Shown: piece by piece, positions 9,376-61,154 of the stretch
Numbering within the stretch: position 1 is the stretch's first letter
How the letters are laid out: the number at the start of each line of letters is the position of its first letter
Source: Actinomycetota bacterium
Lineage (GTDB): Bacteria; Actinomycetota; CADDZG01; JAHWKV01; JAOPZY01
Assembly: GCA_035765775.1 (NCBI GenBank)
Contig: DASTWV010000057.1
Coordinates: 27,160-91,159 of the forward strand
DNA: 64,000 bases
Reading direction: 5' to 3'
The notes under the pieces: generated by a model
Told to the model about the DNA's origin: nothing
The model's input: only the letters and a program-made list of their open reading frames with translations
Database searches by the model: none
Translations under genes and position numbers: made by a program

Positions 9376-9930
9376 ATGGATGTCTTCGAGGCCATCAGGG
9401 CCCGGCGCAACGTGCGCCAGTTCGACGGCCGCCCGGTCCCGCCCACCGACCTGGACCGCATCCTGGAGGCCGGCCGCCTGGCTCCTTCGGCGGGCAATTC
9501 GCAGCCCTGGGACTTCATCCTCGTCACCGACCGGGCACTGCTCGAGGCCCTCGCCGGCGTCTGGCAGGGAGCCCGCCACGTCGCCGCGTCGGCGGCCACC
9601 ATCGCGCTGGTGGCCCCGGTGCTGGCCGATCCCGGGCGCAGCGCCATGGTGGAGTTCGACCTGGGCCAGGTGACCGCCCACCTGATGCTGGCCGCCGCCG
9701 AGCTGGGTGTCGGGTCGGCGCACGCTGCGGTCCGGGACCAGGATCTGGCCCGGCAGATCCTCGGCCTGCCGGGGGACCGCCGCCTGGCGTGGCTGATCGC
9801 CCTGGGCTACCCGGCTACCCGGGCGCTGCGGCCGCGCCGGCACCCGAACCGCCGGCCGCTGGAGGAGATCGTCCACCTGGACCGCTGGAACGAGGTCAGC
9901 CCGCCCGGACCTCCTCCAACCGGCGCCTGA
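9376..9930 (+). CDS. Nitroreductase-family flavoprotein
   Basis: RRNVRQF...[23 protein letters not shown] signature. 184 aa. Confidence 0.85.
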
Positions 9931-11143
9931 GGAACCGGCGCACCACGGCGTTCGCCGTGAGGCCCAGCGCCCGCTCGTAGGCGGCGGCCGCCTCCGCCCG
10001 CCGGCCCATGCGCCGGAAGAGGTCGGCCCGGGCGGCGTGGAACAGGTGGTAGCCGCCCAGCTCGTCGGCCAGCGGCGCCATGCGGGCCAGCCCGGCCGGG
10101 ATGTCGCCCGCCATCGCCACCGCCACCGCCCGGTTCAACTCGATCACCGGCGAGGGCACCTGGGCGGCCAGGAGGCCGTAGAGCCGGGCGATGGAGGCCC
10201 AGTCGGTGTCGGCCGCCGCCCGGGCCCGGCAGTGGGATGCCGCGATCGCCGCCTGGAGCTGGTAGGGCCCGGGCGCCGCCCGGGCGCCGAGATGGGCCAG
10301 CAGCCCCTCACCCTCGGCGATCTCGGCCCCGTCCCAGGCGCTGCGGTCCTGGTCCTCCAGGAGGACCAGCTCACCGCGGGCGGAGACCCGGGTGGCCCGC
10401 CGGGCATCGTGGAGCAGCATCAGGGCCAGGAGGGACACCACCTCGGGCTCGGTCGGCATCAGGGCCACCAGGACCCGGCCCAGCCGGATCGCCTCGGCAG
10501 CCAGCTCCCGGCGGATCAGTGCGTCGCCGCTGGTGGCCTCGTAGCCCTCGTTGTAGATCAGGTAGACGACGGCCAGCACCGAGCGCAGCCGCTCCGCCAG
10601 CAGGTGGTCCGGGGGCACCCGGTACGGGATGCCCGCCACCTTGATCTTGCGCTTGGCCCGCACCAGGCGCTGGGCCATGGTGGCCTCCGGAACCAGGAAG
10701 GCCCGGGCGATCTCCGGCGTCGTCAGCCCGCCCAGGCTCCACAGCGTGAGGGCCACGCGGGCCTCGGGGGCCAGCGCCGGGTGGCAGCAGGTGAAGATCA
10801 GGCGCAGGCGGTCGTCGTCGATGGCTCCCTCCGGCTCGTGCCCGGCCGCCTCCAGCGCGGCGAGCTGGCCCAGGGCGTCCCGCTTCTCGGTGAGGCGCCG
10901 GTCGCGCCGGAGCCGGTCGATGGCGCGGTGGCGGGCGGTGGTGGTGATCCAGGCGGCAGGGTTGTCGGGCAGCCCGTCCTGCGGCCACCGCTCCAGGGCC
11001 ACCACGAAGGCCTCCTGGACCGCCTCCTCGGCGACATCGAAGTCGCCGGTCAGCCGGATGAGCGTCGCGACCGCCCGCCCGCGCTCGGCACGGAACAGGC
11101 GGTCGACGACGCTGCCCGAAGAGCCCTCTGTGCTGATGGCTAG
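9896..11143 (-). CDS. ECF-type RNA polymerase sigma factor with C-terminal TPR-like extension (COG4941/ECF56-like)
   Basis: Region 2 (AFVVALERW...[16 protein letters not shown]) and region 4 ([31 protein letters not shown]) are present, followed by a ~200-aa helical extension. The start is uncertain: the track ATG at 11212 would overlap the YciI gene by 72 nt. The 3' end overlaps the nitroreductase 3' end by 35 nt (convergent). Confidence 0.8.
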
Positions 11144-11496
11144 CCTTCGTAGTCGATGACCGGGCGCACCTCGATCGACCCGGCCGCCGCGCCCGGGATC
11201 CTGGCGGCCCACTCGATGGCCTCGTCGAGGTCCTTGCAGGTGAAGACGTAGAAACCACCGAGGGCCTCCTTGGTCTCCGCGAACGGGCCGTCGGTGGTGA
11301 GCACCTGGCCGTCGCGCACCCGGACGGTGGTGGCCGTCGAGGAAGGCTGCAGGCCGTCGCCCGACTGGAAGATGCCGGCCGCCTGGGTCTCCTCGGTGTA
11401 GACCTGGTAGGCCTTGGCCATCTGCATGCCGTCCTCCGGCGTGGCGTCGGCGAAGCGCGACTCGTCGAGGTAGATCAGTGCCATGTACCTGGGCAT
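11140..11496 (-). CDS. YciI-like (DGPF domain) protein
   Basis: 118 aa, with motifs YMALIY...DGPFAETKE...GGFYVF. It is the canonical partner gene found upstream of COG4941/ECF41-56 sigma factors. Confidence 0.8.
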
Positions 11497-11629
11497 TGCG
11501 GTCTCCTTCCGGTCACCGGCACCCCTGCGGCGCCGTTTGACTGTACCGACGAACGGGGGGATGGCGAAATCGACAGCCGTCCAAAAAATTGTTGCTGCCG
11601 TTCTCCATGGATGGTCTATGCGGGGTGGT

Positions 11630-12115
11630 CTATGCGGCGCTCTCGGTGGTGGGGCCGGGCGGCGGAGCAGCCCGCGCTCCGTGGAAGTACGCCGACGCCT
11701 CCGGGCGGTAGAGCAACAGGATCGTCGCGGCGCCCACCCCCAGCACCACGAAGCTGGTCAGCTTGGTCCATGCCGGGTCGGCGTTGACCAGCGATGCCAG
11801 CCAGTCGGCGGCGAAGACGGCGAACAGCCCGGTGGCGGTCCGGCGCGCCCACCGGTAGCCGAGGCCGTTGGCGTGCGCCATCCACAGCCACAATGCGACG
11901 CCCAGGATGCCGGCCACCACGATCGCCACGATGGCGGCGGCGAAGGCGGCGTTGAGCTGGTGGTCGGTGAGGTGGTGCGCGCCGTGCTGGCGGATCGAGG
12001 TGCGGAGCTGGCCCATGAAGGCCAGGCCGAGGAGGAAGTTCAGCCCGCTCGCCACGGCCCCGGCGTGCATGAGCTTGACCGCCTGGGCGACGCTCGGCGG
12101 TGGGTCGGCACGCAT
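11630..12115 (-). CDS. Small integral membrane protein (4 predicted TM)
   Basis: The in-frame ATG lies 11 nt after the MidA stop. Hydrophobic segments include AFAAAIVAIVVAGILGVALWLW and FVVLGVGAATILLL. The upstream part of track ORF 11630..12940 is non-protein-like. Confidence 0.5.
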   Translation of the reverse strand: MRADPPPSVAQAVKLMHAGAVASGLNFLLGLAFMGQLRTSIRQHGAHHLTDHQLNAAFAAAIVAIVVAGILGVALWLWMAHANGLGYRWARRTATGLFAVFAADWLASLVNADPAWTKLTSFVVLGVGAATILLLYRPEASAYFHGARAAPPPGPTTESAA

Positions 12116-12128
12116 GGTGGCCAGAATG

Positions 12129-13295
12129 TCACGCCTCCCCCCCACTCCGGGGCATGGCAATGTCGCCTTTCGTCGCCCGGAACACCAGGATGTCGCCCAA
12201 GCCTCCCTCGGCGGCGAGAGCGGCGGCGGCCTCCGCCTCGCCCTCGAGCACCTCGGCCTGGCCGTGCCAGCCGCAGGCGGCGGCCCGCCACACCTGCTCG
12301 GCGAGGGCATCCACCACCTCCCCCAGCCCGATCGACAGCAGGAACAGGCGCTGTGTCGTGAGGGCCGGGTGGTGGAAGCCGGCGTGACGGGCGGCCCGGA
12401 TGACCGCCGAGAAGTTGACGTCGGCGGTGATGTCCTGATGGCCGGGGGCCTCGAGCGGGGCCTGGCCCCTCCCGGCCGGGCCGTAGGTCGCCAGCGTGCC
12501 GGTTGGCCCCCGATGCCAGATGTCGGGCTCGACATCACCGTAGTCGAGGACCAGGACCATCCCCTGCTGCAGGGCGCCGGAGGCCTCCTGCCACCAGGAC
12601 TCGAACGCTGGGCAGACCTCCATGCGGTCGCCCTCGTGGAGGTGCGGGGCCGCGGCCACCGCCGGCGCCGCCAGGTCGGCGCACGACAGGGGGCCGAGGC
12701 ACTCGTAGAGCCCGCGGCCGTCCGCATCGACGTACACCTCCCCCACCTCGCCCCGGGCCTTCTCCAGCACGTGGACCGGGAAGTTGTCCAGGACCTCGTT
12801 GGCCAGCAGGCAGCCGGTGACCGGGGAGCCGTCACCCAGGGCCGGGGTCCAGGCGGACCGCTCCGCCAAGGCCCCCAGGCGGGCGTGTTGCAGGTCCCGG
12901 ACCGGGGCGAAGCGCTCCACGAATCGCCAACGCAGGGCATCGGCTACCGGCCAGGCGAACGCCTCCTGGAGGGCCTCGGCCGCCAGATCGCCCTGGCCCG
13001 CCCCCACCTCGAGGACGGTGAACGGGTCCGGGCAGCCCAGTGCCTCCCAGATGCCAGCGAGTTCCCGGGCCAGGAGCCGGCCGAACCAGGGCGACACCGA
13101 CGAGGAGGTGGCGTAGTGGCCCCCGTGGCCGGGCTGGTGGGCGGCGTAGTAGCCGTGCTCGGGATCGTAGAGGGCGGCGTGCATGAACGCGGCGAAGGTC
13201 AGGGGTCCGCCCCGGCGGATCCTCGCCGTCAGCTCGTGCACGAGCCCGACCGTCACATGCCGGTTCCTCGAGCGTCTCCGCGCCCCGGACCGCAT
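12129..13295 (-). CDS. MidA/NDUFAF7-like class I SAM-dependent methyltransferase (DUF185)
   Basis: PLTFAAFMHAALYDPEHGYY, FGRLLARELAGIWEALGCPDPFTVLEVGAGQGDLA and VLANEVLDNFPVHVL are typical of COG1565. The upstream half of the 628-aa track ORF is a Pro/Arg/Gly-rich artefact. Start is the ATG at 13295 or the GTG 13 codons later. Confidence 0.8.
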   Translation of the reverse strand: MRSGARRRSRNRHVTVGLVHELTARIRRGGPLTFAAFMHAALYDPEHGYYAAHQPGHGGHYATSSSVSPWFGRLLARELAGIWEALGCPDPFTVLEVGAGQGDLAAEALQEAFAWPVADALRWRFVERFAPVRDLQHARLGALAERSAWTPALGDGSPVTGCLLANEVLDNFPVHVLEKARGEVGEVYVDADGRGLYECLGPLSCADLAAPAVAAAPHLHEGDRMEVCPAFESWWQEASGALQQGMVLVLDYGDVEPDIWHRGPTGTLATYGPAGRGQAPLEAPGHQDITADVNFSAVIRAARHAGFHHPALTTQRLFLLSIGLGEVVDALAEQVWRAAACGWHGQAEVLEGEAEAAAALAAEGGLGDILVFRATKGDIAMPRSGGEA

Positions 13296-13387
13296 GGGCG
13301 CGTTGCGGCGCCACTTCGCTAGTGCCCCTACTGCCTGCTGGTGCGTCGAGATATACCCCGGCCGGGCGGCCGGAGGCAAGCCGGCGA

Positions 13388-13978
13388 CTAGTGGGTGTAG
13401 GCCGGGGTCCCCCGGTGGGCGCTGCTGGCGCCGGTGCCGTTGGTGGACTTGCGGTCCGCCAGGGCTGCGGTCAGGCCGCTGACGTGGCTGCTGACCGGCT
13501 GGGCGCTGTACTGGGGTCGCTTGGCCACCGGTGACGTGTACAGCGACAGGTCGGGCAGGCGGATCCCCGGGTTTGCCACCCTGGCCGCACCGTTGTCCAC
13601 GGCGGCGTGGCGGGCATCCCAGCGGAAGGGGCGGTGGACCGGGGCGTTGGGCGTCTCCGCCTGGCGGGCCAGCTTGGCACGGCGGGCGAGGACCTCCTCG
13701 GGGGTCGGGCCGTAGAAGATGCGGCCATTGGCGATCCCGGTTTCGCGGGTCTCCACGGCGACGTGGTGCGGGATGATGCTGTTGCCCCGCCAGAGCATGC
13801 AGGTCGGGAAGAATCGGCCGTTTTTTTTGCCATACCCGGAGAACGGCCGGTACTCCAGTTCCTCCTGCGGCTCTCCGTTGTGCTGCCAGTACCCGGTCAC
13901 TGCTGCGTGATGAATGGTCTCCAACGCCGGCCCCCTTTGACGGACCCTCAAGATACGCCCGGCGGGCCCGGCCTTCAA
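13388..13978 (-). CDS. Hypothetical protein
   Basis: 196-aa ORF with strong GC3 bias and balanced composition (e.g. ETGIANGRIFYGPTPEEVLARRAKLARQ). No family recognised by eye. Confidence 0.4.
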   Translation of the reverse strand: MKAGPAGRILRVRQRGPALETIHHAAVTGYWQHNGEPQEELEYRPFSGYGKKNGRFFPTCMLWRGNSIIPHHVAVETRETGIANGRIFYGPTPEEVLARRAKLARQAETPNAPVHRPFRWDARHAAVDNGAARVANPGIRLPDLSLYTSPVAKRPQYSAQPVSSHVSGLTAALADRKSTNGTGASSAHRGTPAYTH

Positions 13979-14937
13979 TGCCTCGGTGGCGGTGCGGCCC
14001 CACCCCCGGGTGCACTGTGGCGAAGCGCTGTGGTGCGTCGGGCAGCGTCGTGATGCGGTAGTATTGCCCGGTTCGGGGCCGCTGGGCTCGTATAAAAAAC
14101 GTTCAGACGAGTCGCATAGGGCTCACCTACGCCGCTCCGGCGGCGGCCAGGGCGCCTGAGTGGCCCTCAAGAGGCATTGAGCGGCGGCCGCGGCTCCGCC
14201 GTGAAGCTCCGCGTGGTCCTGAGCCGCCCGTTGGTCAACTGCTGGCAGGAGGCCTGGCCGTCGATCCAGAGGTCGGCATCGCTGCGGCCGTGGCAGGCGA
14301 GGGCGATGAGCACATGGTCGGCCCCGGCGCACGCCCAGGCGTCGCTGCCCGGCCGGGCGGTGCGGGCGCGGTCAGCCGCGGCGGCCACCCCGCCGGCCTG
14401 GGCGGCGGTGAGATCGAGATGCCGTCCAGATCCCCACCGAGGCCCCCGGAGCCGTAGGAGCACACCAACCCGGCGGTCGGGTCCTGCACGGCCATCTCGA
14501 ACCAGAAGCCCAGGCCGGGGTTGCTGACGCCCCGCTGGACCAGAACGATTGGCGGACGAAGAGCCCCGCCACCACCCGGATGACCAGGAGGAGGGCGAGG
14601 GCGGTGGGGCGCACCCGATGACGCGTGGCCAAGCGGCGGAGCAAGAACCATGTATGCGCCCTGCCGTGGACCATGCAGGTAATGTCGGACCTTAGCAACG
14701 GGCGCTAAATAGCGCCACCGTGTCAAGTTCGGAGGATAGATTCGAGCCGGACCGGCTTGCTAGACCCCCCCAGCCCTCTTTGTGCATGGCTGAGCAGGAT
14801 AATCCTGCTCAGGGCGGCACAAATGGAGGGCGATCTGCAGGTTCGGGCTCATGCGGTCAGCAGTGTGTTGGGTCCCGGCCGGCGGAGTACACTTTCCCGA
14901 CACTCCGCGCGAGATCAGGCGTCAGCTTGGTGGCCCT

Positions 14938-15390
14938 ATGCCTAGGCTGTTCGGCAGGCGATCAACCTCGGCCGTGGCCCTTGTGGTTGGCAGTCGGAGA
15001 AACTATGTGCACGTGGTATCCCTTATCGTGCTCCTCGCGTCTCTGGCTGGGACTTCCTGTGCTCACCGGACTCATGCAGCTTCTCGGGCAACGATAACTG
15101 GACACATTTGGTTCGCCGGCCCGCGCGTGTTCTTCGTTGTTCCAGGAACCGTATGGGCTTATGAACGGAACGTCCAGGGTGAGGTCGTAGCCTCCTCTGA
15201 GACTGACACTCACGGCACTTTTAGCCTTTCGGTGCCGGCACCAGGGGTTTACGTCATCGGGGGGGACTCGCCAAAATTCAATGGGGGGAGTCCATCCCCC
15301 GCCCGTCCCGTGGCAGCGTGCGTGAGCTCACCGGTGCGCGTTTCTCCTCGGACAAGCGCCACTGTACGAGTGCTTTGTCAAGCTCAATAG
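14938..15390 (+). CDS. Small secreted protein with carboxypeptidase-regulatory-like (transthyretin-fold) domain
   Basis: Internal ATG MPRLFGRR, then the signal-like segment VVSLIVLLASLAGTSCA. The following ITGHIWFAGPRVFFVVPGTVWAYERNVQGEVVASSETDTHGTFSLSVPAPGVYVIGG resembles a CarboxypepD_reg/Cna-B-type beta-sandwich. The gene sits in a stretch of distinctly lower GC (~58%) next to tRNA genes. Confidence 0.5.
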   Translation: MPRLFGRRSTSAVALVVGSRRNYVHVVSLIVLLASLAGTSCAHRTHAASRATITGHIWFAGPRVFFVVPGTVWAYERNVQGEVVASSETDTHGTFSLSVPAPGVYVIGGDSPKFNGGSPSPARPVAACVSSPVRVSPRTSATVRVLCQAQ

Positions 15391-15558
15391 GCCGACCTGG
15401 GGCGCCCTGCGGGAATTGTCATTTGCGGGACTCGTAACTCTACCGCCCGATACCCTCGGGCGGATCTGGCCTCAATGTGGCCTGACGTTTCCGAGCAGGC
15501 CGTGGAGTCAGGGCCGCCGATCTGACGAAACTGGTCTGTGACCAGCGGAAATGCTCCG

Positions 15559-15632
15559 TACCCCCGACGGGTTTCGAACCCGTGATCTCCGCCTTGAGAG
15601 GGCGGTGTCCTAGGCCGCTAGACGACGGGGGC
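15559..15632 (-). tRNA. tRNA-Glu (anticodon CTC)
   Basis: The reverse complement GCCCCCGTCGTCTAGCGGCCTAGGACACCGCCCTCTCAAGGCGGAGATCACGGGTTCGAAACCCGTCGGGGGTA folds as a cloverleaf with a GTTCGAA T-loop. The anticodon loop is CTCTCAA. Close to E. coli tRNA-Glu. Coordinates are ±1. Confidence 0.85.
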
Positions 15633-15654
15633 CTGTGCCACTTCTGACGATCGG

Positions 15655-15727
15655 CTGCCGGGCAAGGACTCGAACCTTGAGCCTTCTGGGCCAGAACCAG
15701 ACGATCTGCCAATTGATCTACCCGGCA
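15655..15727 (-). tRNA. tRNA-Gln (anticodon CTG)
   Basis: The reverse complement TGCCGGGTAGATCAATTGGCAGATCGTCTGGTTCTGGCCCAGAAGGCTCAAGGTTCGAGTCCTTGCCCGGCA has a U1-A72 pair typical of bacterial tRNA-Gln, anticodon stem TCTGG/CCAGA, anticodon loop TTCTGGC and T-loop GGTTCGAGTCC. Coordinates are ±1. Confidence 0.85.
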
Positions 15728-15857: not shown

Positions 15858-18290
15858 CTAGCGGGCTGCCCAGGCCCGGCTCCGGGGTCGAACCGGCGCC
15901 GGCTCCCCGGCCGGTTCCTCGACCTCGGCGCTCTGAGCGCTCGGCATCCCTGCCCACCAGAAGCCGTTGCCCGACGAGCCGTTGGAGGGAGGCCGGGGCG
16001 GGCGGGCTTCGGCGTCCCCGGTCGTTGCCTGCCGGGGAGAGGACTCCATCGCGTCCGCCACTGGGTGGTGAGATGCGGGCACGGGCGCTGGAGGCTCGGT
16101 CGCAGCCAGGATGTCCTCGACGTACACGATGCCCGGGATCTCCTCGGGCACCTCCGCCGCTGCCGGCCGGCGGTCGGTCGACCTGGGACGGGCGGCCGGA
16201 GCAACCGGGTCGGCCGCCCGAGCCGCGGGTCGTCCCGCGGCCGTCCGGGCCGAGGCGGCCGGTCGGGCGGCCGGGCGGTCGATCACCGGAGCACGCCGGG
16301 CCGCCGGCTCGAAGAGTTCGACGGGCAGCTGGCTCGGGAACTCGGGCGCCGCTGGTGGCACGGCGACTGGGCCGGCGGCCGCCCCCACCAGCACCGGCAC
16401 GGGAGTCGCCACCGGAGCCGGCGCCCGCACAGGCGCACGTTCCGGCCGGACAGGCTCCACGACCGGCCGGAACGGCTCCACAGCCGGCCGCACAGCCTCC
16501 GCAGCCTCCCCGGGCTCCAGGGCCGGGGTCGGCACCAGCACAGGGGCGGGGGCCAGCACTGGCCCGGCGAGCCGCTCCGCCGCCGCCCGCTTCTCGATCT
16601 CCTTCGACTTGCGGTGCGACCACCGGATGATCGGCCGCTCCATGCAGTAGTACGACACCGACCCCACGATCAGCGCCCCGCCGCAGGCGAAGGCGAACAT
16701 CTTGAGGAAGTCGCCCGAGGTGGCGTTAGGCGTCCAGTGCAACGTTTTCAGGGCATACCCCACGAACAGCAGGTGCGTGAGGTACAGCCCATAGCTCACG
16801 TCGCCCAGCTTCTTGCTGATCCAGTTTGTGAACGGGAACTGCGCCCATGTCGGCGCCAGAGCGGTCGCCAGGACCAGCACCGTGAAGCACACCGCCACCG
16901 GCGTGGTGCCGATCCAGTGGTCGAAGGGCCCGGACTTGAAGGCCACGTCCCGGGCTCCCGCCTGGTTCATCCACCACAGCACGCCCGACAACGATGCCGC
17001 CTCCACCGGCACCCAGGCCAGGGAGGGGATCTTGAACTTCAGGTTGCCGTTGCGGATCTGGACGAAGACGAAGGCCGCGGTCATGCCGAGCGCGAAGTGG
17101 GCGGTGTAGGTGGGGAACTGTGTGACCAGGATCTCCTTGACGAACTGGGGCGACTTCAGCCCGGCCCAGTGCGGCAGGGGGAACCAGCCGTGGGTCCCGA
17201 TGGTGCGCCAGGTGGCGGCGATCACCTCGGCGATGCCCAGGCCGACGAAGGGGTGCTTGCGGTACCACCCGGCGATCACCGGCAGCAGGGCGTAGAACAC
17301 CACTTCGATGGCCAGCGTCCACACCGCACCGTTGACGAAGAAGCCCTCGGGATAACCGAGCGCCAGCCCCAGGCTGTGCTGAGCGAAGGTCAGGTGGAGC
17401 AGCAGGGTCATCGAGCCCACCCGGGTGAAGGGCGTGACGTGCACCGGAACGGTGACCACCCAGGGCAGCAGGAGCAGGGTGGCGATCACCGCCAGGTAGT
17501 AGGCGGGCACGATCCGGGCACTCCGGCGCAGGGCGTAGGCCTTCTTGCTCCCGAAGTTGCCCTCCGCCACCATGGGCAGGAACAGCAGGAAGCCGCTCAA
17601 GATGAAGAAATAGTCGACGCTGACGTACGAGGCGACGATCAGGTGGAGCAGGAACTTGTTCGACAGGTGGGGCCGGGCAGCGGCATACAGGCAGTGGCAG
17701 GCCACGACGCCGATCGCCGCCAGCCCGCGGAAGCCGTCGGCCGACGGGACCCGCAGCCGGCCCTGGGCCCGTTTGCGGCGCCCCAGCCGGCGAGGCGCCT
17801 GACCTGCCGGTACCGATCCGCTGCCCTGGGGCGCGGTCTCCGCCGGCGGTGCATGGCCGTTCTGGGGCGGCGGGCGGAACCCGCTCCCGACCGGTGGGCG
17901 GATCTGGGCGGGCACGAAGGCGGAAATCCGGGCGCGCCCGGGCGCCGCCACCCTTTTCGCATGGCCATTGCCGTTGCCAGTGCCATTGCCGGTGCCATTC
18001 CCATTGGCCGCCCCATGGGCGTGACCGTTCGATCCCGCCGGGGCATGCCCGTTGGAGGAGACCGGGGCATGCCCGTTGGGCGCCGTCGAGCCGTGCCCGT
18101 TCCTTCCGGGCAACGCCCCGGGCAACACCCCGGGTACCCCGCCCAGCGGGCTGTACCCGTTCCGCCCCGTGGGGCTGCCGGGCTTCGGCCGGAAGGGGAT
18201 GTCGGGGTTCTCGGCCAGCAGGCGCGGACCCTTGGACGGCGAGCGCCGGGCGGTCTTCTTGGGCGCCGGGGCCGGCGGGCGGAGGCTCAC
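15858..18290 (-). CDS. Acyltransferase-3 family membrane O-acyltransferase with low-complexity N- and C-terminal extensions
   Basis: The AT3 core has FRGLAAIGVVACHCLYAA and VSVDYFFILSGFLLF with ~10 TM helices. The N-terminal ~200 aa is Asn/Gly/His/Pro-rich (NGHAPVSSNGHAPAGSNGHAHGAANGNGTGNGTGNGNGHA) and the C-terminal ~270 aa is Pro/Ala-rich. The likely start is a GTG overlapping the FkbM stop (GTGA) at ~18290. The track ATG at 18407 would overlap FkbM by 120 nt. Confidence 0.8.
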   Translation of the reverse strand: MSLRPPAPAPKKTARRSPSKGPRLLAENPDIPFRPKPGSPTGRNGYSPLGGVPGVLPGALPGRNGHGSTAPNGHAPVSSNGHAPAGSNGHAHGAANGNGTGNGTGNGNGHAKRVAAPGRARISAFVPAQIRPPVGSGFRPPPQNGHAPPAETAPQGSGSVPAGQAPRRLGRRKRAQGRLRVPSADGFRGLAAIGVVACHCLYAAARPHLSNKFLLHLIVASYVSVDYFFILSGFLLFLPMVAEGNFGSKKAYALRRSARIVPAYYLAVIATLLLLPWVVTVPVHVTPFTRVGSMTLLLHLTFAQHSLGLALGYPEGFFVNGAVWTLAIEVVFYALLPVIAGWYRKHPFVGLGIAEVIAATWRTIGTHGWFPLPHWAGLKSPQFVKEILVTQFPTYTAHFALGMTAAFVFVQIRNGNLKFKIPSLAWVPVEAASLSGVLWWMNQAGARDVAFKSGPFDHWIGTTPVAVCFTVLVLATALAPTWAQFPFTNWISKKLGDVSYGLYLTHLLFVGYALKTLHWTPNATSGDFLKMFAFACGGALIVGSVSYYCMERPIIRWSHRKSKEIEKRAAAERLAGPVLAPAPVLVPTPALEPGEAAEAVRPAVEPFRPVVEPVRPERAPVRAPAPVATPVPVLVGAAAGPVAVPPAAPEFPSQLPVELFEPAARRAPVIDRPAARPAASARTAAGRPAARAADPVAPAARPRSTDRRPAAAEVPEEIPGIVYVEDILAATEPPAPVPASHHPVADAMESSPRQATTGDAEARPPRPPSNGSSGNGFWWAGMPSAQSAEVEEPAGEPAPVRPRSRAWAAR

Positions 18291-19711
18291 GAGGGGCCCT
18301 CCCCGGCCAGGGTCACCCGCACCCACGCCACGGCCACACCCAGCTCGAGGTCCCCGTCCTCTGAGGCCGACGCCGGTGACCCGGGCGACGGGTTCACCGA
18401 GCTCCACAACCGGGTGGCCGACGTCCCCACCATCACCCGGGTGCTCCCCCTCCGGGACAGCGCCCCCTCCGGGACCACGCCGGCGTACAGGGTGCCGTGC
18501 CGGTGGGGCGAGGCGGTCAGTGCCACGTTCCGGCCCCCGACCGACACCGCCAGGCTCCCCTCGACCTCCGGGGTGACGGCCGCCGCCACCAGGAGCTCGA
18601 CGCGGGACCCGGCCCCCACCACCGCCGGCAGGTCGATCCAGGCGTCCCGGCCGGGCCCACTCCAGCGCAGGCCGAGGTCGCCCACCACCTGGGGCGGGTG
18701 CCAGCCCCCGCCGGCGAAGGCGGGGTCGGTCAGGCTGATCTTCACCGTCCCGGGCCGCCGGAACGACGAGACCGGGGCCGGGGCCGCCGGGGCCGGAGGC
18801 GCTCCCGGCGACGCCAGAGCCGCCGAAATCCGTTCGGCCACCGCCGGCGGGGCGCCATCCCGGGCCAACCCGAGGGCCAGCCCGGACACGTCGTGGAATC
18901 CCAGCGCCCCGGTGATGCAGGCGTCGCGCACGAGCTGGTGCCAGCCGAGACCGGCGGCCGGGTAGGCCACCTCCCGGCGCAGGTAGTAGGCGTTCGCCCA
19001 GAAGAGCTGGCCGGGGCCGCTGTCGAACCGGTGGGCGCCGTCATCCAGCTGCCACACGTCGGGCGTGCGCCAGCCGAGGTCGGCCCCCGCCTGCCCGTAG
19101 TGGGCGAGGTCCCGCAGCCGCCAGAGGACGAAACCCCGCCGGCGCAGGAACCGGTCGACGTCGCCGAATAGCGGCGCCCCGGCGTAGAGCTCGTTGAACT
19201 CGACCTCGACCTCGACCGCCCGCACCCCGGCCAGGGTCGCCTGGGCGCCCTCCAGGACGCCCAGCTCCGACCCCTGCGTATCGACCTTGATGACATCCAC
19301 CCGCGCGATCCCCTCAGCGGCGCACCACTCGTCCAGGACGGCCAGCTCGACCATCACCGAGGACTCCGGGGTGATCACCCCGAGGCCCGGGTGCCGCTCG
19401 TAGGCCGCCGCCGAAGGCGGGTAGAGCGAGGAGCACGCCGGCTGCCGGGTGACGTGCAGGGTGGCCACCCCCGAACGGGGGCCCAGCGCCACCGGCGCTA
19501 CCCGGTGCGGCGCCCCCGACCGCCGGTGGAGTTCCTGCAGCCGCCGGCACTCCTCGGCGTCCGGCTCGAAGCCGATGGCCACATAGCGGTCACCCAGGTC
19601 GTCCCAGGTGGAAGCAAACCCCCACCGGGCGCCCACGTCAACCACGACGATGGGGTCGTCGAGGAGGGGGGCGATGGCGGCGGCTCGCGAGGAAGGTAGA
19701 GGTAGATCCAA
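18287..19711 (-). CDS. FkbM-family SAM-dependent methyltransferase with C-terminal extension
   Basis: Motifs VVDVGARWG and IKVDTQGSELGVLEGA (Methyltransf_21/FkbM), followed by a ~200-aa C-terminal beta-rich extension. Confidence 0.8.
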   Translation of the reverse strand: MDLPLPSSRAAAIAPLLDDPIVVVDVGARWGFASTWDDLGDRYVAIGFEPDAEECRRLQELHRRSGAPHRVAPVALGPRSGVATLHVTRQPACSSLYPPSAAAYERHPGLGVITPESSVMVELAVLDEWCAAEGIARVDVIKVDTQGSELGVLEGAQATLAGVRAVEVEVEFNELYAGAPLFGDVDRFLRRRGFVLWRLRDLAHYGQAGADLGWRTPDVWQLDDGAHRFDSGPGQLFWANAYYLRREVAYPAAGLGWHQLVRDACITGALGFHDVSGLALGLARDGAPPAVAERISAALASPGAPPAPAAPAPVSSFRRPGTVKISLTDPAFAGGGWHPPQVVGDLGLRWSGPGRDAWIDLPAVVGAGSRVELLVAAAVTPEVEGSLAVSVGGRNVALTASPHRHGTLYAGVVPEGALSRRGSTRVMVGTSATRLWSSVNPSPGSPASASEDGDLELGVAVAWVRVTLAGEGPS

Positions 19712-49155: not shown

Positions 49156-51804
49156 CTACTCCTTGGTGAAGAACTCCAGCTCACTGATGGCCACGGAGGT
49201 GCCACCGCTGGACGACGGGTAGACCGACTCGATGGTGATCGTCACCCCCCGGATGCCATGGCCGTGCTCCAGGGTCAGGAGCTGGGCGTCGGGCTGGTTC
49301 TTGAGCGTCAGGGTGTCCGACTGCCCGTTGCTGTAGCTGATGAGCACCGACTTCGGCCGCGGCTCGGCGACAAAGGTGGCGCCAATGCCGCTGAACACGT
49401 TCACCCGGTCCAGGTTGACCGGTTGCTGGGACGTGGAGGAAAAGAGGATGAACATCGAGACCCCCACCCCGAGCTTGGGGCTCGCCTGCGCCTGCCACCA
49501 GGTGTTGGTGTGACCGTCGATGGCCTGCGCCGCCAGGTGCGTGGGCACTGAGGAGGTCGACGAGGCGTTCAACGGCGTCACCAGGTTGTAGTGCGGCGAC
49601 ACCTTCTTGCGGATGCTGGAGGTGACGCTCTTCACCTTGTTCTCGACTGTCTTGCGGTACGGCCCGGCGGCGGCCACGATCCCGGCGACCACCGCCAGGG
49701 CGATTATGATCTTGATCACCTTGCCCACTGCCGAGGGCTTGGGGGCTGTCCGGCTCCCGTGGCCCTGGGCCGGCCGTTCGCCGGCGGCGAGCACCGCCTT
49801 CTTCCGCCCGAAGATGCGCTTCCACCAGGAGACCTTGGGTGTCGGGGCCACGACCGCCGCCTCCAGCGAGGTGCCACAGCGCCGGCAGAACCTGCGGTTG
49901 GGCGTATTGCCCTCACCGCACTGGCCGCAGATGAGGTCGCCCGGAGCGTAGGTGCGGGCCGGTGGCGGCGCCTCCGCAGGGGCGGGCCGGGCTTTGGCGG
50001 CCGCGGGCTTCACCGCCTCGGGCTGGGACACCTGGGGCTTCACCGCCGCGGGGGCCTGGGGCGGCATCGGTCCCCCGTACGGCGAGGGCGACGCGGCGTA
50101 GGGAGGCGCCGGTGCGCCGGGGGCCGGGGCTGGCGTGTCGGCTCGTGACGCGGCCGCGGGGGCCTGCGTCGCCGGAGCCGGTTCCCAGAGGGAACGCTGC
50201 GGCGGCGGAGGGCCCGGTGGTGCGGGAGGAGGTGGAGCTCCCCACAGAGGAGGTCCCGCGGGCGCGGCAGGCGGCGCGGGCGGGCCTGCTGCCGGTGCCG
50301 GGGTGGGTCGGGGGCCGGCCGGCGATGCCCCGGGCGGTGGTGGTGGGGGCGCCTTGGCCACGAGTGCCGCTGCTCGGCGGGCAGCCTCCTGGGCCTTGGC
50401 CGCCTGCTCGGCGGCGAGGCGGGCCTCCTCCTGCGCCCGGCGGGCCTCCTCTTCCGCCTGGGCCTTGGCGGCGGCCTCCGCTTCCGCGCGTCGGGCCTGC
50501 GCCTCCGCTTCCCGGCGGGCGGCCTCATGAGCCTGGGCGGCAGCTGCAGCCCGAGCCTCCTCCTCGAGCCGGGCGGCCTGCTCAGCCTGGCGCGCCTGTT
50601 CCGCCTCGGCAGCCTCCTCGGCCGGCGTTGGGGGTGGCGTGCCGTCCGGTCCAGCCGCCAGGCCAGCCCCGGGCGCCGAGCCGGCGTCGCCGGGCGACGG
50701 GGGCGACCCAAACGACGTGGCGGGCGCAGGCGGCGAGAGAGGCGCAGCAGGCGATACGGCGGGCTCCGACGGCGCCGGCCCAGCAGGCGGGCGGGTCCCC
50801 AGGACGCTCTGCATCCGTGGACGACGTGCCCTGCCGGTTTCCGGCGCCGGGGCGCCCGTCGATGCCGGGGCGTCAGCCGCTGCGGTCGACAGAGATTCGG
50901 CTTCGGCGCCTACCGGTCCTTCCGGACCGGCGGGTGCAGGGGCGTCGTCCGCCAAGGACCGGCGCCCGGGGCGAGCCGGCCCCAACGGAGCGTCGCTCAG
51001 GCTGTAGCGGCCGGACGCGAGCGGTTCTGCCCATGGTTCCACCCGGGCCCGGGCAGGCTCTCCCGCCGGCCCAGGCGGCTCCGCACTCGGCCCAGGAGGC
51101 GCTGCTCCCACCGGTCCGGGTGGCCGTTCGGCGGTCTTCTCACCCCGCGGGCCCGGTCTCGGCCCACCGGTCCCGGCCGCCTCGGCCGGGGGCTCCGGTG
51201 CCACGTCCGGACCCGGTTTCGGTCCCGGCTTGGACGCTTCCTCCGAGCGGGCCGCAGCCGCAGCCGCCTCAGCAGCCGCCTGCATTTGGGCCTGGGCGGC
51301 GTCGGCAGCTTGGGTGGCGTCGGCAGCTTGGGCGGCCTGCCGTCTCGCAGCTTCCTCGGCCTCAGCGGCGGCGTGGCGCCGGGCGGCTTCCTCAGCCTCG
51401 GCCCGTTGGTGCTCCTGCTCGGCGGCCACCCGGGCGGCCTCGGCCGCAGCCCGCCGGGCCTGCTCCTCGGCGGCGGCACGGCGGGCGGCTTCCTCGGCGG
51501 CTCGGCGGGCGGCCTCCTCGGCCTCCGCTGCCCGGCGGCGGGCTTCCTCGGCAGCTCGCTGGGCGGCGAGGCGCTGGCGCTCCTCCTCCCGTTGCCGGAG
51601 CTCGGTGGCCAGGTCGGGCGGCGGGGGGGGCGGGGTCAGCGGAGCCGGCGCCGGGGTGGGTGAAGGCACCGGAGCGGCCTCCGGGGGGAACGCCGGGGCG
51701 GCGGGTGCCTCGCGCTCCCCGGTGAATTCCAGGAAGGAGCCGCAGGAACCGCAGAACTCGTCGCCGTCCTCGTTGCGGTTCCCGCACTGCTTACAGATGA
51801 TCAA
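49156..51804 (-). CDS. Double zinc-ribbon / coiled-coil / single-TM / discoidin (F5/8 type C)-like domain protein embedded in the CIS operon
   Basis: The likely TTG start overlaps the gpI stop, and a GAGGTGG RBS lies 7 nt upstream. The N-terminal zinc ribbon is IICKQCGNRNEDGDEFCGSCGSF. About 500 aa of Ala/Glu/Arg-rich coiled-coil (RRAAEAEEAARRAAEEAARR...) alternate with Pro-rich segments. A second zinc ribbon is LICGQCGEGNTPNRRFCRRCGTS. One TM helix (VIKIIIALAVVAGIVAAAG) follows. The C-terminal ~170 aa, AIDGHTNTWWQAQ....GGTSVAISELEFF, resembles the F5_F8_type_C/NPCBM carbohydrate-binding fold. The upstream ~115 codons of track ORF 49156..52149 are a non-coding extension. Confidence 0.7.
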   Translation of the reverse strand: MIICKQCGNRNEDGDEFCGSCGSFLEFTGEREAPAAPAFPPEAAPVPSPTPAPAPLTPPPPPPDLATELRQREEERQRLAAQRAAEEARRRAAEAEEAARRAAEEAARRAAAEEQARRAAAEAARVAAEQEHQRAEAEEAARRHAAAEAEEAARRQAAQAADATQAADAAQAQMQAAAEAAAAAARSEEASKPGPKPGPDVAPEPPAEAAGTGGPRPGPRGEKTAERPPGPVGAAPPGPSAEPPGPAGEPARARVEPWAEPLASGRYSLSDAPLGPARPGRRSLADDAPAPAGPEGPVGAEAESLSTAAADAPASTGAPAPETGRARRPRMQSVLGTRPPAGPAPSEPAVSPAAPLSPPAPATSFGSPPSPGDAGSAPGAGLAAGPDGTPPPTPAEEAAEAEQARQAEQAARLEEEARAAAAAQAHEAARREAEAQARRAEAEAAAKAQAEEEARRAQEEARLAAEQAAKAQEAARRAAALVAKAPPPPPPGASPAGPRPTPAPAAGPPAPPAAPAGPPLWGAPPPPAPPGPPPPQRSLWEPAPATQAPAAASRADTPAPAPGAPAPPYAASPSPYGGPMPPQAPAAVKPQVSQPEAVKPAAAKARPAPAEAPPPARTYAPGDLICGQCGEGNTPNRRFCRRCGTSLEAAVVAPTPKVSWWKRIFGRKKAVLAAGERPAQGHGSRTAPKPSAVGKVIKIIIALAVVAGIVAAAGPYRKTVENKVKSVTSSIRKKVSPHYNLVTPLNASSTSSVPTHLAAQAIDGHTNTWWQAQASPKLGVGVSMFILFSSTSQQPVNLDRVNVFSGIGATFVAEPRPKSVLISYSNGQSDTLTLKNQPDAQLLTLEHGHGIRGVTITIESVYPSSSGGTSVAISELEFFTKE

Positions 51805-57770: not shown

Positions 57771-60700
57771 TCAGGTGAGGTCGGTCAGGAGTCCCGCCCG
57801 CTCCCGGTCGTGCCAGAGCTCCCGGCGCAGGTAGGGCCGGAGGCGGGGGTAGAGGCGGCGGGCGAGCTCATCGATGTCGTCGGGCAGGGCTTTGTTCGGC
57901 TCCACCGGGGCCGTCTCGGGGCCGGCGGTGGCCGCAGATGCCGCCGGGCTGGTTGCCGGTGAACGTGGGGCCGGGGAGGTTCTGGGCGGGCTGGCCATGG
58001 GGGACGGGGTGCCGGTGGCGGTTTCTGTCGGCGCTCGCTGCACCATGCGGAACACCTGCTCCGCCGTGGGGCGGGTGGGAGCAGGAGATAGCCGCAGGAT
58101 GGGGGCGGGAAGCGGGGAGCGGGACACCAGGGCATCCATGGAAGCCCTACCCCCCGGCGCCGACCGGGGCTGGGACGACGGGGCGGCCGGCGTTGCCGGG
58201 GCGGCCGGCGTTGCCGGGGCGGCCGGGCCGTGGCCGGGGAGAGATCGTTGCAGGGCGCGGACCCCGAGGAGCGGAGTCGGTGCCTCGGGCAGCCTGGGGG
58301 CCGCCCACGGGGTGGCGGTCGGCATCGGGAGGGCCGGCAGGTCGGCGCCGGTGGGGTCTGGGTGCGCGGGGCCCGGAGGCGGCGAATTGGGCAGAACCCC
58401 GGTGGCGTCGGCCTCACCTCGCCCCCGGAGGGCGGTGGCGATCGGGCGCTCGGGGAGCGGGGCGGTATGGCCGGCCGGGACCCGGTGCGCGGGGCCCGGA
58501 GGCGAACTGGACAACAAAAGCCGTGAGTTCTGAGGGTAATGGTGCGCGGAAACCTCGGGGCTGGGCGCGACGCCGGCGCTGGGCAGCGCCGTGGCGATCG
58601 GGCGCTCGGGCAGCGGGGCGATGTGCTCGACCGGGGATGGGGACCGCTCTGGGAGCGCCGGAAGGTTGACCAAGTGGGATTCGGTGGGTGAATGGGGCAA
58701 CAAGACCGGTGGATGCTGCGCGTGACGCTGCGCGGAAACCTCAGGACGGGCCGGCGTTGCGGCAGCGCCTTCGTCCGTTGGGCGGGGCAAGGCGGTGGCG
58801 ATGGGACGCTCCGCCAGCGATGAGATCTCCCAGCTGCGTGGCGCCGAAGGTTCGGCGAATGTGCCCGGCAGCCGAGAAGCACCCTCCTTGCTCAGTTCGA
58901 GCCCAGTCCCGGGCAGCTCGGCCGGCACGGGGGGGCTTTGGTGCTGGGAGTCTGCGGGCAGCGCGGTGGCGATCGGGCGCTCCGTGAGCGGCGCAACCCC
59001 GGTGGCCGGGACGGCCTGCGCCGGGTCCGTCTGCGCCGCGTCGGTCTGCGCCGGGAGGGCGGCCGCCGGCCCCCCGGGGACAACCGGGAGCGTCGGCTCC
59101 GGGATTCTGTGTACACCGGGGTGCTCCATATGGCGCTGCGTGTACACAGAATCCGGGGTTGGCGACAATCGCTGGGCGGTTCGCTCGGGAGCTGCGCCCC
59201 GGGCGGTCAGCGGCGGGGCAGGCGGCGACGCGGACGGGACACTCTCGGGCAGCCGGGCGGGGACGACCGCCCCGCGCATCGCCCCGGCGGGGTTTCCGGC
59301 GCCCTCGCTGAGCGGCGGAGCAGCCTCGGGCAACGAGGTCGAGATCGGTCGGTCGGCCAGCGGCGGTGCGGCGGGTGAGCTGACCGATGGATCGGGGCCT
59401 TCCGTGATCCGCTGCGGTGCCGGTTCCGGGGTCTGCGACGAGAGAGGTGCCGGCGGCCACGATGTAATGGGCACATCCTCCGGGATCCGGACGGCGGGTG
59501 CCTCGCCACGCTCCGCTGGAACGGTGCCGGCGCTCCCATCCGGCGGCAGGGGCGGTGCCACCTCGGGCAGCGCGGTCTCGATCGGTCGTTCGGCCAGGGG
59601 GGGTGTGACCAGCGCTCTGGTGGCCGCCGAAGAAGGAGCGTCGACGAGCTGCTGCACCGGCGCCTCCGGCTTGGACGCGAGGTCCGCCGGAGGAGCACCG
59701 GCCTTGCCCGGCAACGGTGCCCCCAGCCCGAGGCCCAGCTGGCGGATGGTCCGTCGCTTCACGGCCACCGGAGCGGTCCGGGCCACAGCCGCTGCTCCGG
59801 GTGCCACGACGGGCGAAGAGGGCGATGCCGGACCCGGTGCGGCCGGGGAGCGCGGCGGGGCTATAGGCGGACCCGAAGGATCCGAGGGCCCCGGCAACGG
59901 CGAGGCAATCGGCGGAGCCGCCGAGGCAGGGCTGCCCGCGGCGGCAGGGCCAGACGGAACGGCGGGGGGAGCCGAGCGGACCACCGGGGCCGCCGGGAGA
60001 CGCTGGATCGGTGGCCCGGACGGGACGGGAGTGACCGGTCCGCCGTTCCGGGATGCGGCCGGCCGGGGGGCCGCGGCCGGAGGCACCGGCCGGGGCGGAA
60101 GCTGGTCGGGTGGCGACACCAGGTCCGCCGGCCCCTCGGCGGCGGGGGGCAACGTCTCGGCTCCTAGCGTCGGCGCCTCCATCGGCCGTCCTTGGGGTGC
60201 CATGGAGGGAACGGGCGGTTCGGCGACCGGTTCGACGGGCAGCCCAGCGACTGTCTGCGCCACCGGCCCCGCAGGGTCTGCAGAGGGAACACCGACCGGG
60301 GCAACGCGGGGCAAAGGGATGGTCGCGGCAGGGGCTGCCACCGACCGCGAGACGGACGGCATCTCCACCGCCGGGAGCTCCCGGGGCACCAGGCCTTTCG
60401 GGGCTGCCTGGAGGAGCGGCCGGATCGGCTTGGAAACTGGGACCGCGGGACTGGCCCCCCTCGGGGCCGCGCCGGCGGAGTCCCGCCCGCTGAGCTGGCC
60501 CGGATCCGGAACCGGGTCGATCTCCCGGGCCGGCGCGCCCGCCGACTGCTGCTGCACCTGAGGCTCCGCCCCGGTCTCGACTAGCGACCCCGGCACCACC
60601 GCATCCGATCCCAGCACCACAACCGGCCCCGGCACCGGCACCGGCGCCCCAACTGCCGGGGGAACGGGGGCAGCGGGCTCGCTCCACCGGATCGCCGGGG

Positions 60701-61148: not shown

Positions 61149-61154
61149 CGGGGC

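Follow-up and report, generated by a model that had tools for sequence, protein, structure and literature searches.

A decayed native gene, a strong inverted repeat and a probably acquired small gene beside a tRNA pair in an uncultured soil Actinomycetota

Bacterial genes inactivated by frameshifts or small deletions retain their codon bias, show colinear homology split over several reading frames, and keep their synteny. Islets and integrative remnants next to tRNA genes carry a gene of foreign composition at the tRNA 3' end, and the relatives of that gene occur in mobile contexts. Transthyretin-like and carboxypeptidase regulatory-like domains (PF13620 and PF10670 DUF4198; structures 5aq0, 1qmu, 3e8v, and 6hif_Y) are extracytoplasmic and modular. 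The locus described here is like each of these in the traits named, with export of its small protein being a prediction. It is chromosomal, comes from an uncultured soil Actinomycetota represented by a metagenome-assembled genome (MAG) with 72% GC, and was analyzed within a window, the whole 64-kb stretch of DNA to which all coordinates refer. A sequence-only reading of the window had described a low-GC islet of decayed open reading frames (ORFs), two palindromes, and a small secreted protein, and had taken it for a classic integration or remnant site. We consider it likely that the flagged stretch is instead a composite of ordinary features, namely, a decayed native gene, a spacer, a probably acquired intact small gene, and a tRNA pair, with no active mobile element. 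The main features are as follows.

13388-13924, minus strand: native neighbor gene, 178 aa as annotated (VFW71_13435), ORF open to 13978, no Pfam family
14167-14672, minus strand: pseudogene of an uncharacterized family of ~190-aa proteins (GC3 frame plot switching phase twice; HMMER; family HMM)
14938-15390, plus strand: intact gene for a 150-aa protein, predicted to be exported (GC 0.596; six homologues; dN/dS; AF2)
15443-15463, no strand: 8-bp GC-rich hairpin where the small gene and tRNA-Glu converge (fold energy -17.9 kcal/mol, z -1.6)
15558-15632, minus strand: tRNA-Glu, anticodon CUC (ARAGORN; Rfam RF00005, 60.3 bits)
15653-15727, minus strand: tRNA-Gln, anticodon CUG (ARAGORN; Rfam RF00005, 63 bits)

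The GC content at 14650-15557 is 0.609 versus a window mean of 0.72 (sd 0.04, 500-nt windows), making this the longest low-GC run in the window. The dip behind the proposed islet is thus real and persists on recalculation, but most of it has a GC content of 0.60 to 0.69, typical of noncoding DNA in this genome, and the pseudogene is native in composition (GC 0.73, GC3 ~0.9). For coding DNA, anomalous composition is limited to the small gene. The region had also been placed directly 5' of the two tRNA genes; in the orientation of tRNA-Glu itself, it adjoins the 3' end, which faces the small gene, so that the tRNA-Glu/tRNA-Gln pair and the small gene are convergent. The hairpin between them may, on weak support, be a bidirectional terminator, but the consensus terminator scan did not report it. 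That scan returned nothing relevant, a promoter scan found no sigma-70-like site, and Rfam at a permissive threshold reported the two tRNAs and nothing else. An overlapping plus-strand ORF at 14720-15097 was discarded, as neither coding signal nor homology backs it.

No intact gene is present from ~14016 to 14850, and codon-usage segmentation bore out this part of the sequence-only reading, with coding signal confined to broken minus-strand frames. A frame plot and Viterbi segmentation both place two phase changes within the pseudogene. The 64-kb window contains 23 same-strand frame switches. A stop codon accompanies every one of them, at a distance of at most 38 nt, except the switch at 14411, whose closest stop codon is 176 nt off. 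The pseudogene resolves into three pieces and two lesions.

14525-14672, minus strand: piece A, with an ATG at 14672, a basic N-terminus, a transmembrane (TM) helix, and the 'QSFWSSGASATP' motif; family HMM positions 12-46
14525-14549, minus strand: lesion 1, an internal deletion junction (HMM coordinates, overlapping alignments of pieces A and B, translations)
14445-14549, minus strand: piece B, 'RGVSNPGLGFWFEMAVQDPTAGLVCSYGSG'; family HMM positions 60-94 (score 36.6, E 5e-13)
14424-14445, minus strand: lesion 2, net loss of one nucleotide in a variable loop (GGLGGDLDG / RHLDL), frame -1
14167-14424, minus strand: piece C, 'RHLDLTAAQAGG...GRSDADLWIDGQASCQQLTNGRL...' and the stop codon; family HMM positions 103-178 (score 71.8, E 8e-24)

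The three peptide pieces quoted earlier are present in the sequence and all belong to one protein family. A profile HMM built from 14 intact ~190-aa homologues, all of them single uninterrupted ORFs, matches the three minus-strand frames in colinear order. The family (20 relatives) was found by exhaustive HMMER alone; a word-indexed protein search with the reconstructed product returned nothing, nor did a search with that product against species-representative genomes. Family members carry an N-terminal TM anchor or lipoprotein signal followed by a Cys-containing extracytoplasmic domain. The best intact relative aligns contiguously across the second junction, and over reconstructed residues 48-168 the identity to P0008 is 55%.

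Piece C is 100% identical to a called fragment (P0007), and piece B has an E value of 5.9e-11 in a whole-window six-frame search. Piece A is the least secure of the three, with weak homology. Its GC3 is 0.80 to 0.88 in its own frame, its HMM match scores 3.3 (E 0.42 in the whole-window search), and BLASTP gave an E value of 0.002 for P0010 and 15/36 identities to P0008. At lesion 1, family HMM positions 47-59 are missing, including the conserved 'sPvxvTVaGGCP' segment with its conserved Cys, and the frame is shifted; the junction nucleotides give 'GASATP' in the first frame and, read in the following one, 'RGVSNP', each of which fits family motifs. The deletion would amount to ~70 nt, a size taken from homologue spacing and the HMM gap rather than from an aligned orthologue. 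For lesion 2, across which the homologues are contiguous, the Viterbi path puts the frame switch at 14411/14412. The ancestral gene would read as one for a ~190-aa membrane-anchored extracytoplasmic protein, presumably inactivated by the ~70-nt deletion, which takes out a conserved strand bearing a Cys, and by the separate loss of a single base.

Since the source is a MAG and one of the lesions alters a single base within a run rich in G, the frameshifts could be sequencing or assembly errors in a gene that is intact in the organism. The other lesion, however, is a ~70-nt deletion that removes a conserved motif, and no other unexplained frame switch occurs in the 64 kb. A different assembler gave the identical sequence: a Logan contig (L086) is 100% identical over 4,336 nt and reproduces the lesions, although it possibly derives from the same reads as the MAG and would then test the assembler and not the sequencing. 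The sequence-only reading had allowed that relatives with intact genes here would point to an assembly error. In contigs of a related population (L091-L096, ~76% nucleotide identity), which keep the order of pseudogene tail, 178-aa neighbor gene, and Methyltransf_28 (MidA-type methyltransferase), the syntenic copy is broken too, by a different 1-nt insertion found in five assemblies. We therefore regard error as highly improbable. It is scarcely credible that programmed ribosomal frameshifting lets the three frames be expressed, or that they yield functional split peptides. All three pieces do keep a coding-like GC3, but both junctions lack a slippery heptamer, HMM positions 47-59 are physically missing, the 14 profile homologues are uninterrupted without exception, and the relative is broken at another site by another lesion. 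On sequence grounds, then, 14167-14672 is best read as a real, dead pseudogene, as first proposed, in which the last 73 codons alone remain a callable ORF, annotated publicly as the hypothetical protein VFW71_13440.

The contigs of the related population all end near the equivalent of 14420, before the small-gene site, and on this side reach as far as the pseudogene tail. Homologues of the 178-aa neighbor at 76 to 80% identity were found, and the contexts of its more distant homologues are not syntenic. A synteny search with the methyltransferase in species-representative genomes yielded 80 loci, the closest of which are 54% identical and not syntenic; in none of them are tRNA-Glu or tRNA-Gln, the 178-aa neighbor, a member of the pseudogene family, or the small gene close by. 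The comparison around the tRNA pair that had been proposed as a check thus gave synteny on the pseudogene side in the related population, and no tRNA pair near the 80 methyltransferase loci. Because its composition is native and its surroundings are syntenic in the relative, the pseudogene is vertically inherited and does not belong to an island.

A noncoding spacer of ~265 nt separates the pseudogene from the small gene and holds a strong inverted repeat of 43 nt. The repeats in this part of the window are listed here.

14701-14716, no strand: inverted repeat GGCGCTAAATAGCGCC, GGCGCTA-AA-TAGCGCC (7+2+7), ~30 nt upstream of the pseudogene ATG
14780-14822, no strand: composite inverted repeat of 43 nt in which outer arms TGTGC/GCACA flank the perfect core CTGAGCAGGAT-A-ATCCTGCTCAG (14790-14812)
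14791-14811, no strand: TGAGCAGGATAATCCTGCTCA, 10-bp arms with one central base, 11 bp when 14790 and 14812 are included

The first repeat had been called a perfect palindrome, but it is not self-complementary, consisting of 7-bp arms and a 2-nt center. Repeats with 7-bp arms are common in the window (88 observed versus 64 ± 9 expected), and the RNA fold has a z score of -1.6; this repeat is at the level of chance and probably fortuitous. The second palindrome exists, 10 nt away from the position first given (14791-14811, not 14781-14801). No perfect repeat with a short spacer anywhere in the window has longer arms than the one at 14790-14812, and four loci have arms of at least 10 bp versus 1.4 expected. 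The full 43-nt repeat occupies the divergent spacer as a single copy in the window and folds into a hairpin of -25.9 kcal/mol (z -6.0), with none of 200 shuffles as good. It may be an operator or a relic hairpin. Two other readings were rejected. The palindrome core is not a recurrent element, its seven exact metagenome matches all lying in unrelated, mostly low-GC contigs, and the core sites of an integron attC (RYYYAAC/GTTRRRY) are absent by eye.

The 150-codon, lower-GC ORF noted at 14938-15390 is present. The encoded protein combines a signal or anchor helix with a downstream ~100-aa transthyretin-like beta-sandwich, for which AF2 gives a pLDDT of ~90 over residues 49-150. In-frame alternative GTG starts lie at 14974, 14983, and 15007, the last with a GGAG 7 nt before it. 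Six metagenomic homologues, at 59 to 71% identity, form six clusters among 5.8 billion. The family alignment has 52 invariant columns, with two invariant Cys and the invariant motifs VPAPGVYV, GGDSPxFNGGSP, ACVSS, and VLCQAQ. With dN/dS values of 0.17 to 0.26, the window copy is under purifying selection of the same strength as the rest of the family. The best-conserved part at the DNA level is the following.

15087-15387, plus strand: conserved C-terminal domain 'ATITGHIW...VLCQAQ', the sole part with DNA-level similarity (70 to 75%) to homologues

No gene caller called the small gene and none of six start variants has an exact match in the public record, where it appears to be unannotated; atypical codon usage is probably why the callers missed it. 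The protein had been described as secreted, with a carboxypeptidase-regulatory-like domain. This description holds at the level of fold, since the model predicts a transthyretin-like (prealbumin-like) beta-sandwich and five of the seven family members have sub-threshold matches to PF13620 CarboxypepD_reg and DUF4198 (best PF13620 E value, 0.0032). No member reaches the PF13620 gathering score, however, and the window protein has no PF13620 match at E values up to 10. We infer that the product is exported and would act as an envelope module for binding or sensing.

The GC3 of the small gene is 0.58, whereas every other coding segment of at least 300 nt has a GC3 of at least 0.83, which suggests that the gene is probably foreign. 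Homologues lie among genes for ParA, a resolvase, RES-Xre, and HTH proteins, near an IS110-type transposase fragment, or overlapping an ECF sigma gene. In relatives, the domain is a lipoprotein, makes up the extracytoplasmic portion of a membrane protein in translational coupling with an ECF sigma factor, or comes after a TM helix and a segment that matches PASTA below threshold. On composition and patchy distribution, the small gene was most likely acquired horizontally and kept under purifying selection; neither a donor nor an empty site was found.

The small gene could be native if low GC3 were a property of the family, arising from weak expression, from selection that acts on mRNA structure, or from recurrent recombination at the level of the domain. 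Homologues are likewise lower in GC3 than their host contigs (in L001, contig GC 0.69 and gene GC3 0.63), and the selection on the window copy matches that on the rest of the family. This is nevertheless quite unlikely, given how extreme the value is within the window, how sparse the family is, how unrelated its contexts are, and that DNA similarity is confined to the domain. An improbable further reading is that the ~100-residue domain is a self-contained, exchangeable cassette that soil actinobacteria shuffle by recombination among modules for export or anchoring (lipoprotein signal, ECF-coupled anti-sigma N-terminus, TM helix plus PASTA-like segment), with the window copy as one captured case. 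The main hint is a 450-nt segment, comprising the domain and 131 nt downstream, that two contigs share at 99.1% identity although they are otherwise unrelated and differ in the N-terminal half; in addition, DNA similarity to the window starts exactly at the domain boundary.

Alternatively, the small gene and its flanks could be the last remnant of a mostly deleted element that targeted the 3' end of tRNA-Glu and left one cargo gene. The abutment of a foreign-looking gene with anomalous GC3 on that end, and the plasmid-like and IS-associated contexts of its homologues, speak for a remnant. Against it, neither ORF lists nor Pfam scans of the neighbors showed an integrase or transposase within ~10 kb, and no recombinase gene or fragment was found between 6 kb and 23.5 kb by ORF lists and Pfam, with no PHROGs match. 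A pattern search with the tRNA 3' segment, allowing three mismatches, found the tRNA itself only. The best local tRNA matches are 10 to 13 nt (10 nt versus a shuffle mean of 10.06), so that no direct repeat exceeds chance within 4.5 kb on one side and 14 kb on the other. Protein and DNA searches of PHROGs, PADLOC, plasmid, phage, and IMG/VR data returned nothing, the neighboring genes are housekeeping and envelope genes, and the foreign segment is at most 0.9 kb, with foreign cargo limited to the 453-nt small gene. A remnant is thus unlikely. The claim of a classic integration or remnant site keeps its foreign-looking gene but not its native, syntenic pseudogene, and is weakly supported; there is no sign of an integrative element that works or was active in the recent past. 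We return to the composite of ordinary features and read the flagged stretch as ordinary genome wear and tear.

The value of these results is mostly in annotation. The 73-aa hypothetical protein VFW71_13440 reads as a pseudogene tail, and gene callers missed a conserved small protein, predicted to be exported, at 14938-15390. Both parent families are undescribed, with no Pfam, NCBIfam, or PDB sequence relative, and can be defined from the members collected here. The understanding of tRNA-linked islands and pseudogenes is unchanged, and the link of the small domain to ECF sigma factors suggests an envelope-sensing module.

Compared with the systems introduced above, the locus differs from tRNA-adjacent islets in that integrase and att direct repeats are lacking, foreign DNA amounts to less than 1 kb, and the accompanying pseudogene is native. 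The window copy is also unlike single-pass anti-sigma factors paired with ECF sigma factors, having a signal or anchor helix only and no adjacent, cotranscribed sigma gene; the nearest sigma-type gene in the window (9896-11212) is 3.7 kb from the small gene in an unrelated arrangement. No anti-sigma Pfam domain (zf-HC2, RskA-type) was detected in any family member, and a literature search found no paper on anti-sigma factors with CarboxypepD_reg domains. Among the homologues, the one in L090 has an ECF sigma gene on the other strand at a distance of ~1 kb, and a 177-aa protein (P0002 in L085) overlaps by 8 nt the stop of an adjacent Sigma70_r2/r4_2 gene and has the layout of such anti-sigma factors, with a short cytoplasmic N-terminus, one TM helix, and then the domain. 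This gene order suggests a possible anti-sigma role. Relative to the known transthyretin-like structures, with which it shares 12 to 18% sequence identity, and to PF13620-type domains, the small-gene family stands apart in having no associated catalytic domain, its own invariant motifs, and two invariant Cys.

The stretch flagged by the sequence-only reading holds a genuine native pseudogene and one small, intact gene, probably acquired and unannotated, that encodes a transthyretin-like domain likely to be exported. Apart from two tRNAs, the remainder is ordinary intergenic DNA. The features, in window coordinates, are as follows.

12129-13250, minus strand, MidA-type methyltransferase gene (PF02636)
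13388-13924, minus strand, 178-aa gene (VFW71_13435)
14167-14672, minus strand, pseudogene in three frames
14780-14822, 43-nt composite inverted repeat
14938-15390, plus strand, small gene (150 aa)
15558-15632, minus strand, tRNA-Glu(CUC) (ARAGORN and Rfam)
15653-15727, minus strand, tRNA-Gln(CUG) (ARAGORN and Rfam)

The frameshifted pseudogene proposed from sequence alone is supported by codon usage and by family profile. In a GC3 frame plot, high third-position GC shifts phase over 14175-14385, 14385-14505, and 14535-14640, and all three phases fit the minus strand. Codon-usage Viterbi segmentation found 23 same-strand frame switches in the whole window. The upstream gene's stop lies at most 38 nt from the switch in 22 of them, indicating that the assembly is not generally frameshift-prone; the sole exception is 14411, with the stop 176 nt away. 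The repaired three-piece product had no match by word-indexed protein search or in species-representative genomes, but an exhaustive search with HMMER against 1.84 billion representatives recovered 20 relatives. The best intact relative (P0008, 194 aa, 55% identity) aligns in a single stretch to repaired residues 48-168, spanning the second junction. Family proteins are ∼130 to 250 aa long, most with an N-terminal TM helix or lipoprotein-like signal, followed by a domain with the motifs VTVaGGCP, GVxNxGLGFWFEM, PTxGLxCxY, GRSDVDLW, and CxxLTNGRL. When a profile built from 14 homologues was run on the three minus-strand frames, it matched in three places, in colinear order.

14629-14525, minus strand, HMM positions 12-46, score 3.3 (weak)
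14549-14445, minus strand, HMM positions 60-94, score 36.6
14424-14200, minus strand, HMM positions 103-178, score 71.8

In a six-frame search of the whole window, the larger pieces were significant (E values of 8e-22 and 6e-11) and the N-terminal piece was not (E = 0.42); the latter rests on the frame plot, colinearity, and pairwise similarity to the homologous protein P0010 (E = 0.002). HMM positions 47-59, including VTVaGGCP and its conserved cysteine, are absent, and the first two matches share nucleotides, read as GASATP and RGVSNP in successive frames, each fitting a family motif. From these alignments, we infer an internal deletion of ∼70 nt, possibly arising through short stretches of similar sequence, and a second lesion, the loss of one base between 14445 and 14424.

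On the question of artefact, L086, a contig from a Logan assembly (run SRR25158471), is 100% identical to 11267-15602 without gaps, though its reads may be those of the MAG. Stronger evidence comes from a related population with ∼76% nucleotide identity in six Logan assemblies (runs SRR30829765 to SRR30829777). All or part of the methyltransferase lies downstream of the 178-aa gene in four of its six contigs, and all five contigs with a long enough upstream flank carry the pseudogene-homologue tail in the gene order of the window; these contigs stop near the equivalent of 14420, and the comparison reaches the tail only. An intact gene in relatives would have pointed to an assembly error, but the syntenic copy is also broken, by a different lesion, GACTTAGTGGGTC versus GACCTCTGGATC in the window. 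The GACTTAGTGGGTC lesion divides the family HMM between two frames and was found in all five assemblies covering the site. The conserved synteny and the related population's own lesion indicate that the gene is native, was inherited vertically, and decayed in both lineages.

The five tail-covering contigs (among L091-L096) all have their 5′ end inside the pseudogene and form two groups, with starts within ∼13 nt in each, which suggests a branch point just upstream, e.g., strain heterogeneity or a repeat. Between the pseudogene stop and the 178-aa gene, a block at 14091-14122 (minus strand) containing CGCGACTCGTCTGAACGTTTTTTATA is identical at 30 of 32 positions in the related population, while the remaining spacer has diverged. 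The block may be a promoter or other regulatory element of the downstream gene; a hairpin predicted there in the window is not kept in the related population.

The sequence-only reading had described a low-GC islet. The dip is real, and GC was not uniform on recalculation: 14650-15557 has a GC of 0.609 against a mean of 0.72 (sd, 0.04; 72% for the window) and no low-GC run in the window is longer. Noncoding segments of this genome typically have a GC of 0.60 to 0.69 and tRNAs 0.63, so the spacers are unremarkable, and the composition of the pseudogene region is native (GC, 0.73; GC3, ∼0.9). The genuine anomaly is the coding region 14938-15390, with a GC3 of 0.58; all other coding segments of at least 300 nt have at least 0.83 (mean, 0.94).

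Six homologues of this small gene were found in 5.8 billion clusters, all metagenomic, with 59 to 71% identity over 68 to 89% of the query. Conservation is concentrated in the C-terminal ∼100 residues, where 52 columns are invariant, two cysteines among them, and DNA similarity to homologue contigs (70 to 75%) is limited to 15080-15397. Pairwise dN/dS over the domain is 0.17 to 0.26 for the window copy (0.14 to 0.28 for other members), indicating purifying selection. AlphaFold2 predicts a helix at residues 20 to 35 and a beta-sandwich at 49 to 150 (pLDDT, ∼90). The carboxypeptidase-regulatory-like domain assigned earlier thus holds at the level of fold but not of sequence membership: PF13620 and DUF4198 are each subthreshold in five of seven members (best E values of 0.0032 and 0.01, respectively), and a Pfam scan gave no PF13620 match in the window protein. 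Six plausible starts were considered, and none of the resulting proteins occurs in a 15-billion-protein collection in which both flanking products of the window contig are present. Gene calling on the identical Logan contig also passed over the gene, which appears to be missing from NCBI's annotation as well.

N-termini vary across the family. P0004 and P0005 have perfect lipoboxes (LLASC), P0002 and P0006 combine a cytoplasmic segment with a TM helix, and in the L001 copy a TM helix is accompanied by a segment with a subthreshold PASTA match; the P0002 gene overlaps an ECF sigma gene (Sigma70_r2 and r4_2) by 8 nt. In alignment, the window copy goes with the lipoprotein type, with Leu at the lipobox Cys position and a Cys five residues on, so its export is likely and its lipidation uncertain. 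Contigs L001 and L085, from different sequencing runs, have in common only a 450-nt segment (L001:6978-7427 and L085:919-1368, 99.1% identical) comprising the C-terminal domain plus 131 nt downstream. Their N-terminal halves differ (TM helix and PASTA-like segment versus ECF-sigma-coupled membrane protein), suggesting domain-level recombination, gene conversion, or chimeric assembly.

Of the two palindromes reported earlier, 14701-14716 is instead a 7+2+7 inverted repeat, a size class that we rate as chance-level (88 observed versus 64 ± 9 expected). The second exists but lies ten bases rightward of 14781-14801, at 14791-14811. Its arms are 11 bp with 14790 and 14812 counted, and it sits inside the 43-nt repeat, which as plus-strand RNA folds at −25.9 kcal/mol (z = −6.0; 0 of 200 shuffles as good). 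This repeat lies in a divergent spacer, ∼110 nt upstream of the pseudogene ATG and, on the other side, 116 nt upstream of the first ATG of the small gene. As the genes are now arranged, none reads toward the repeat, which makes it a poor fit for a terminator. A dimeric regulator could use it as an operator, or it could be a relic brought in with foreign DNA; exact core matches in metagenomes are all in unrelated contigs.

A fully decayed integrative element at the tRNA is unlikely, though possible, and is not demanded by the evidence. The position beside tRNA-Glu and tRNA-Gln, proposed earlier as an integration site, favors it, although the minus-strand placement of the tRNAs means that the stretch adjoins the 3′ end of tRNA-Glu rather than lying 5′ of both genes. 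The composition of the small gene also favors it, as do its relatives' mobile contexts: ParA, resolvase, RES-Xre, and HTH genes in L001 and L002 and an IS110-type transposase fragment in L088 (YajQ in L089; ECF sigma factors in L085 and L090). Against it, the tRNA-Glu 3′ segment has no second copy in the window with up to 3 mismatches, and the best local alignments of either tRNA to the flanks (4.5 and 14 kb) are 10 to 13 nt, at shuffle level (left-flank mean, 10.06). No recombinase or transposase family match was found among neighboring ORFs scanned from ∼6 kb to 23.5 kb, and IMG/VR, PHROGs, PADLOC, PLSDB plasmids, and INPHARED phages gave no match.

The neighbors are ordinary chromosomal genes by Pfam: a sigma factor with DUF6596, a YCII protein, a nitroreductase, and a DNA methylase to the left and an Acyl_transf_3 protein, FkbM methyltransferases, and a GT4 glycosyltransferase to the right. 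For the adjacent methyltransferase, identity reaches only 54% in the closest of 185,579 species-representative genomes, which lack synteny, indicating a poorly sampled lineage. The 178-aa protein (taken as 13388-13978) belongs to a small family with relatives (46 to 80% identity) only in metagenomes and Actinomycetota MAGs; the window member has no Pfam or NCBIfam match, and the N-terminal part of its gene drops to a GC of 0.60 to 0.66. The Acyl_transf_3 protein past the tRNAs is an 849-aa ORF (15858-18407) in which long Pro/Ala/Arg/Gly-rich extensions flank the acyltransferase domain (residues 222 to 575) on both sides; clear coding signal is confined to 16455-17786, and the actual gene limits are uncertain. 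By codon-usage segmentation, 57933-61166 and 50623-51354 (GC, 0.76 to 0.78) lack a frame-specific codon signal, and long ORFs overlap there on both strands; they may encode low-complexity proteins or atypical genes.

Two hypothetical proteins are on public record here, VFW71_13435 and VFW71_13440, the latter corresponding to the final 73 codons of the flagged region. Neither protein family has been described, so the region has modest value for annotation; it holds no new kind of system.
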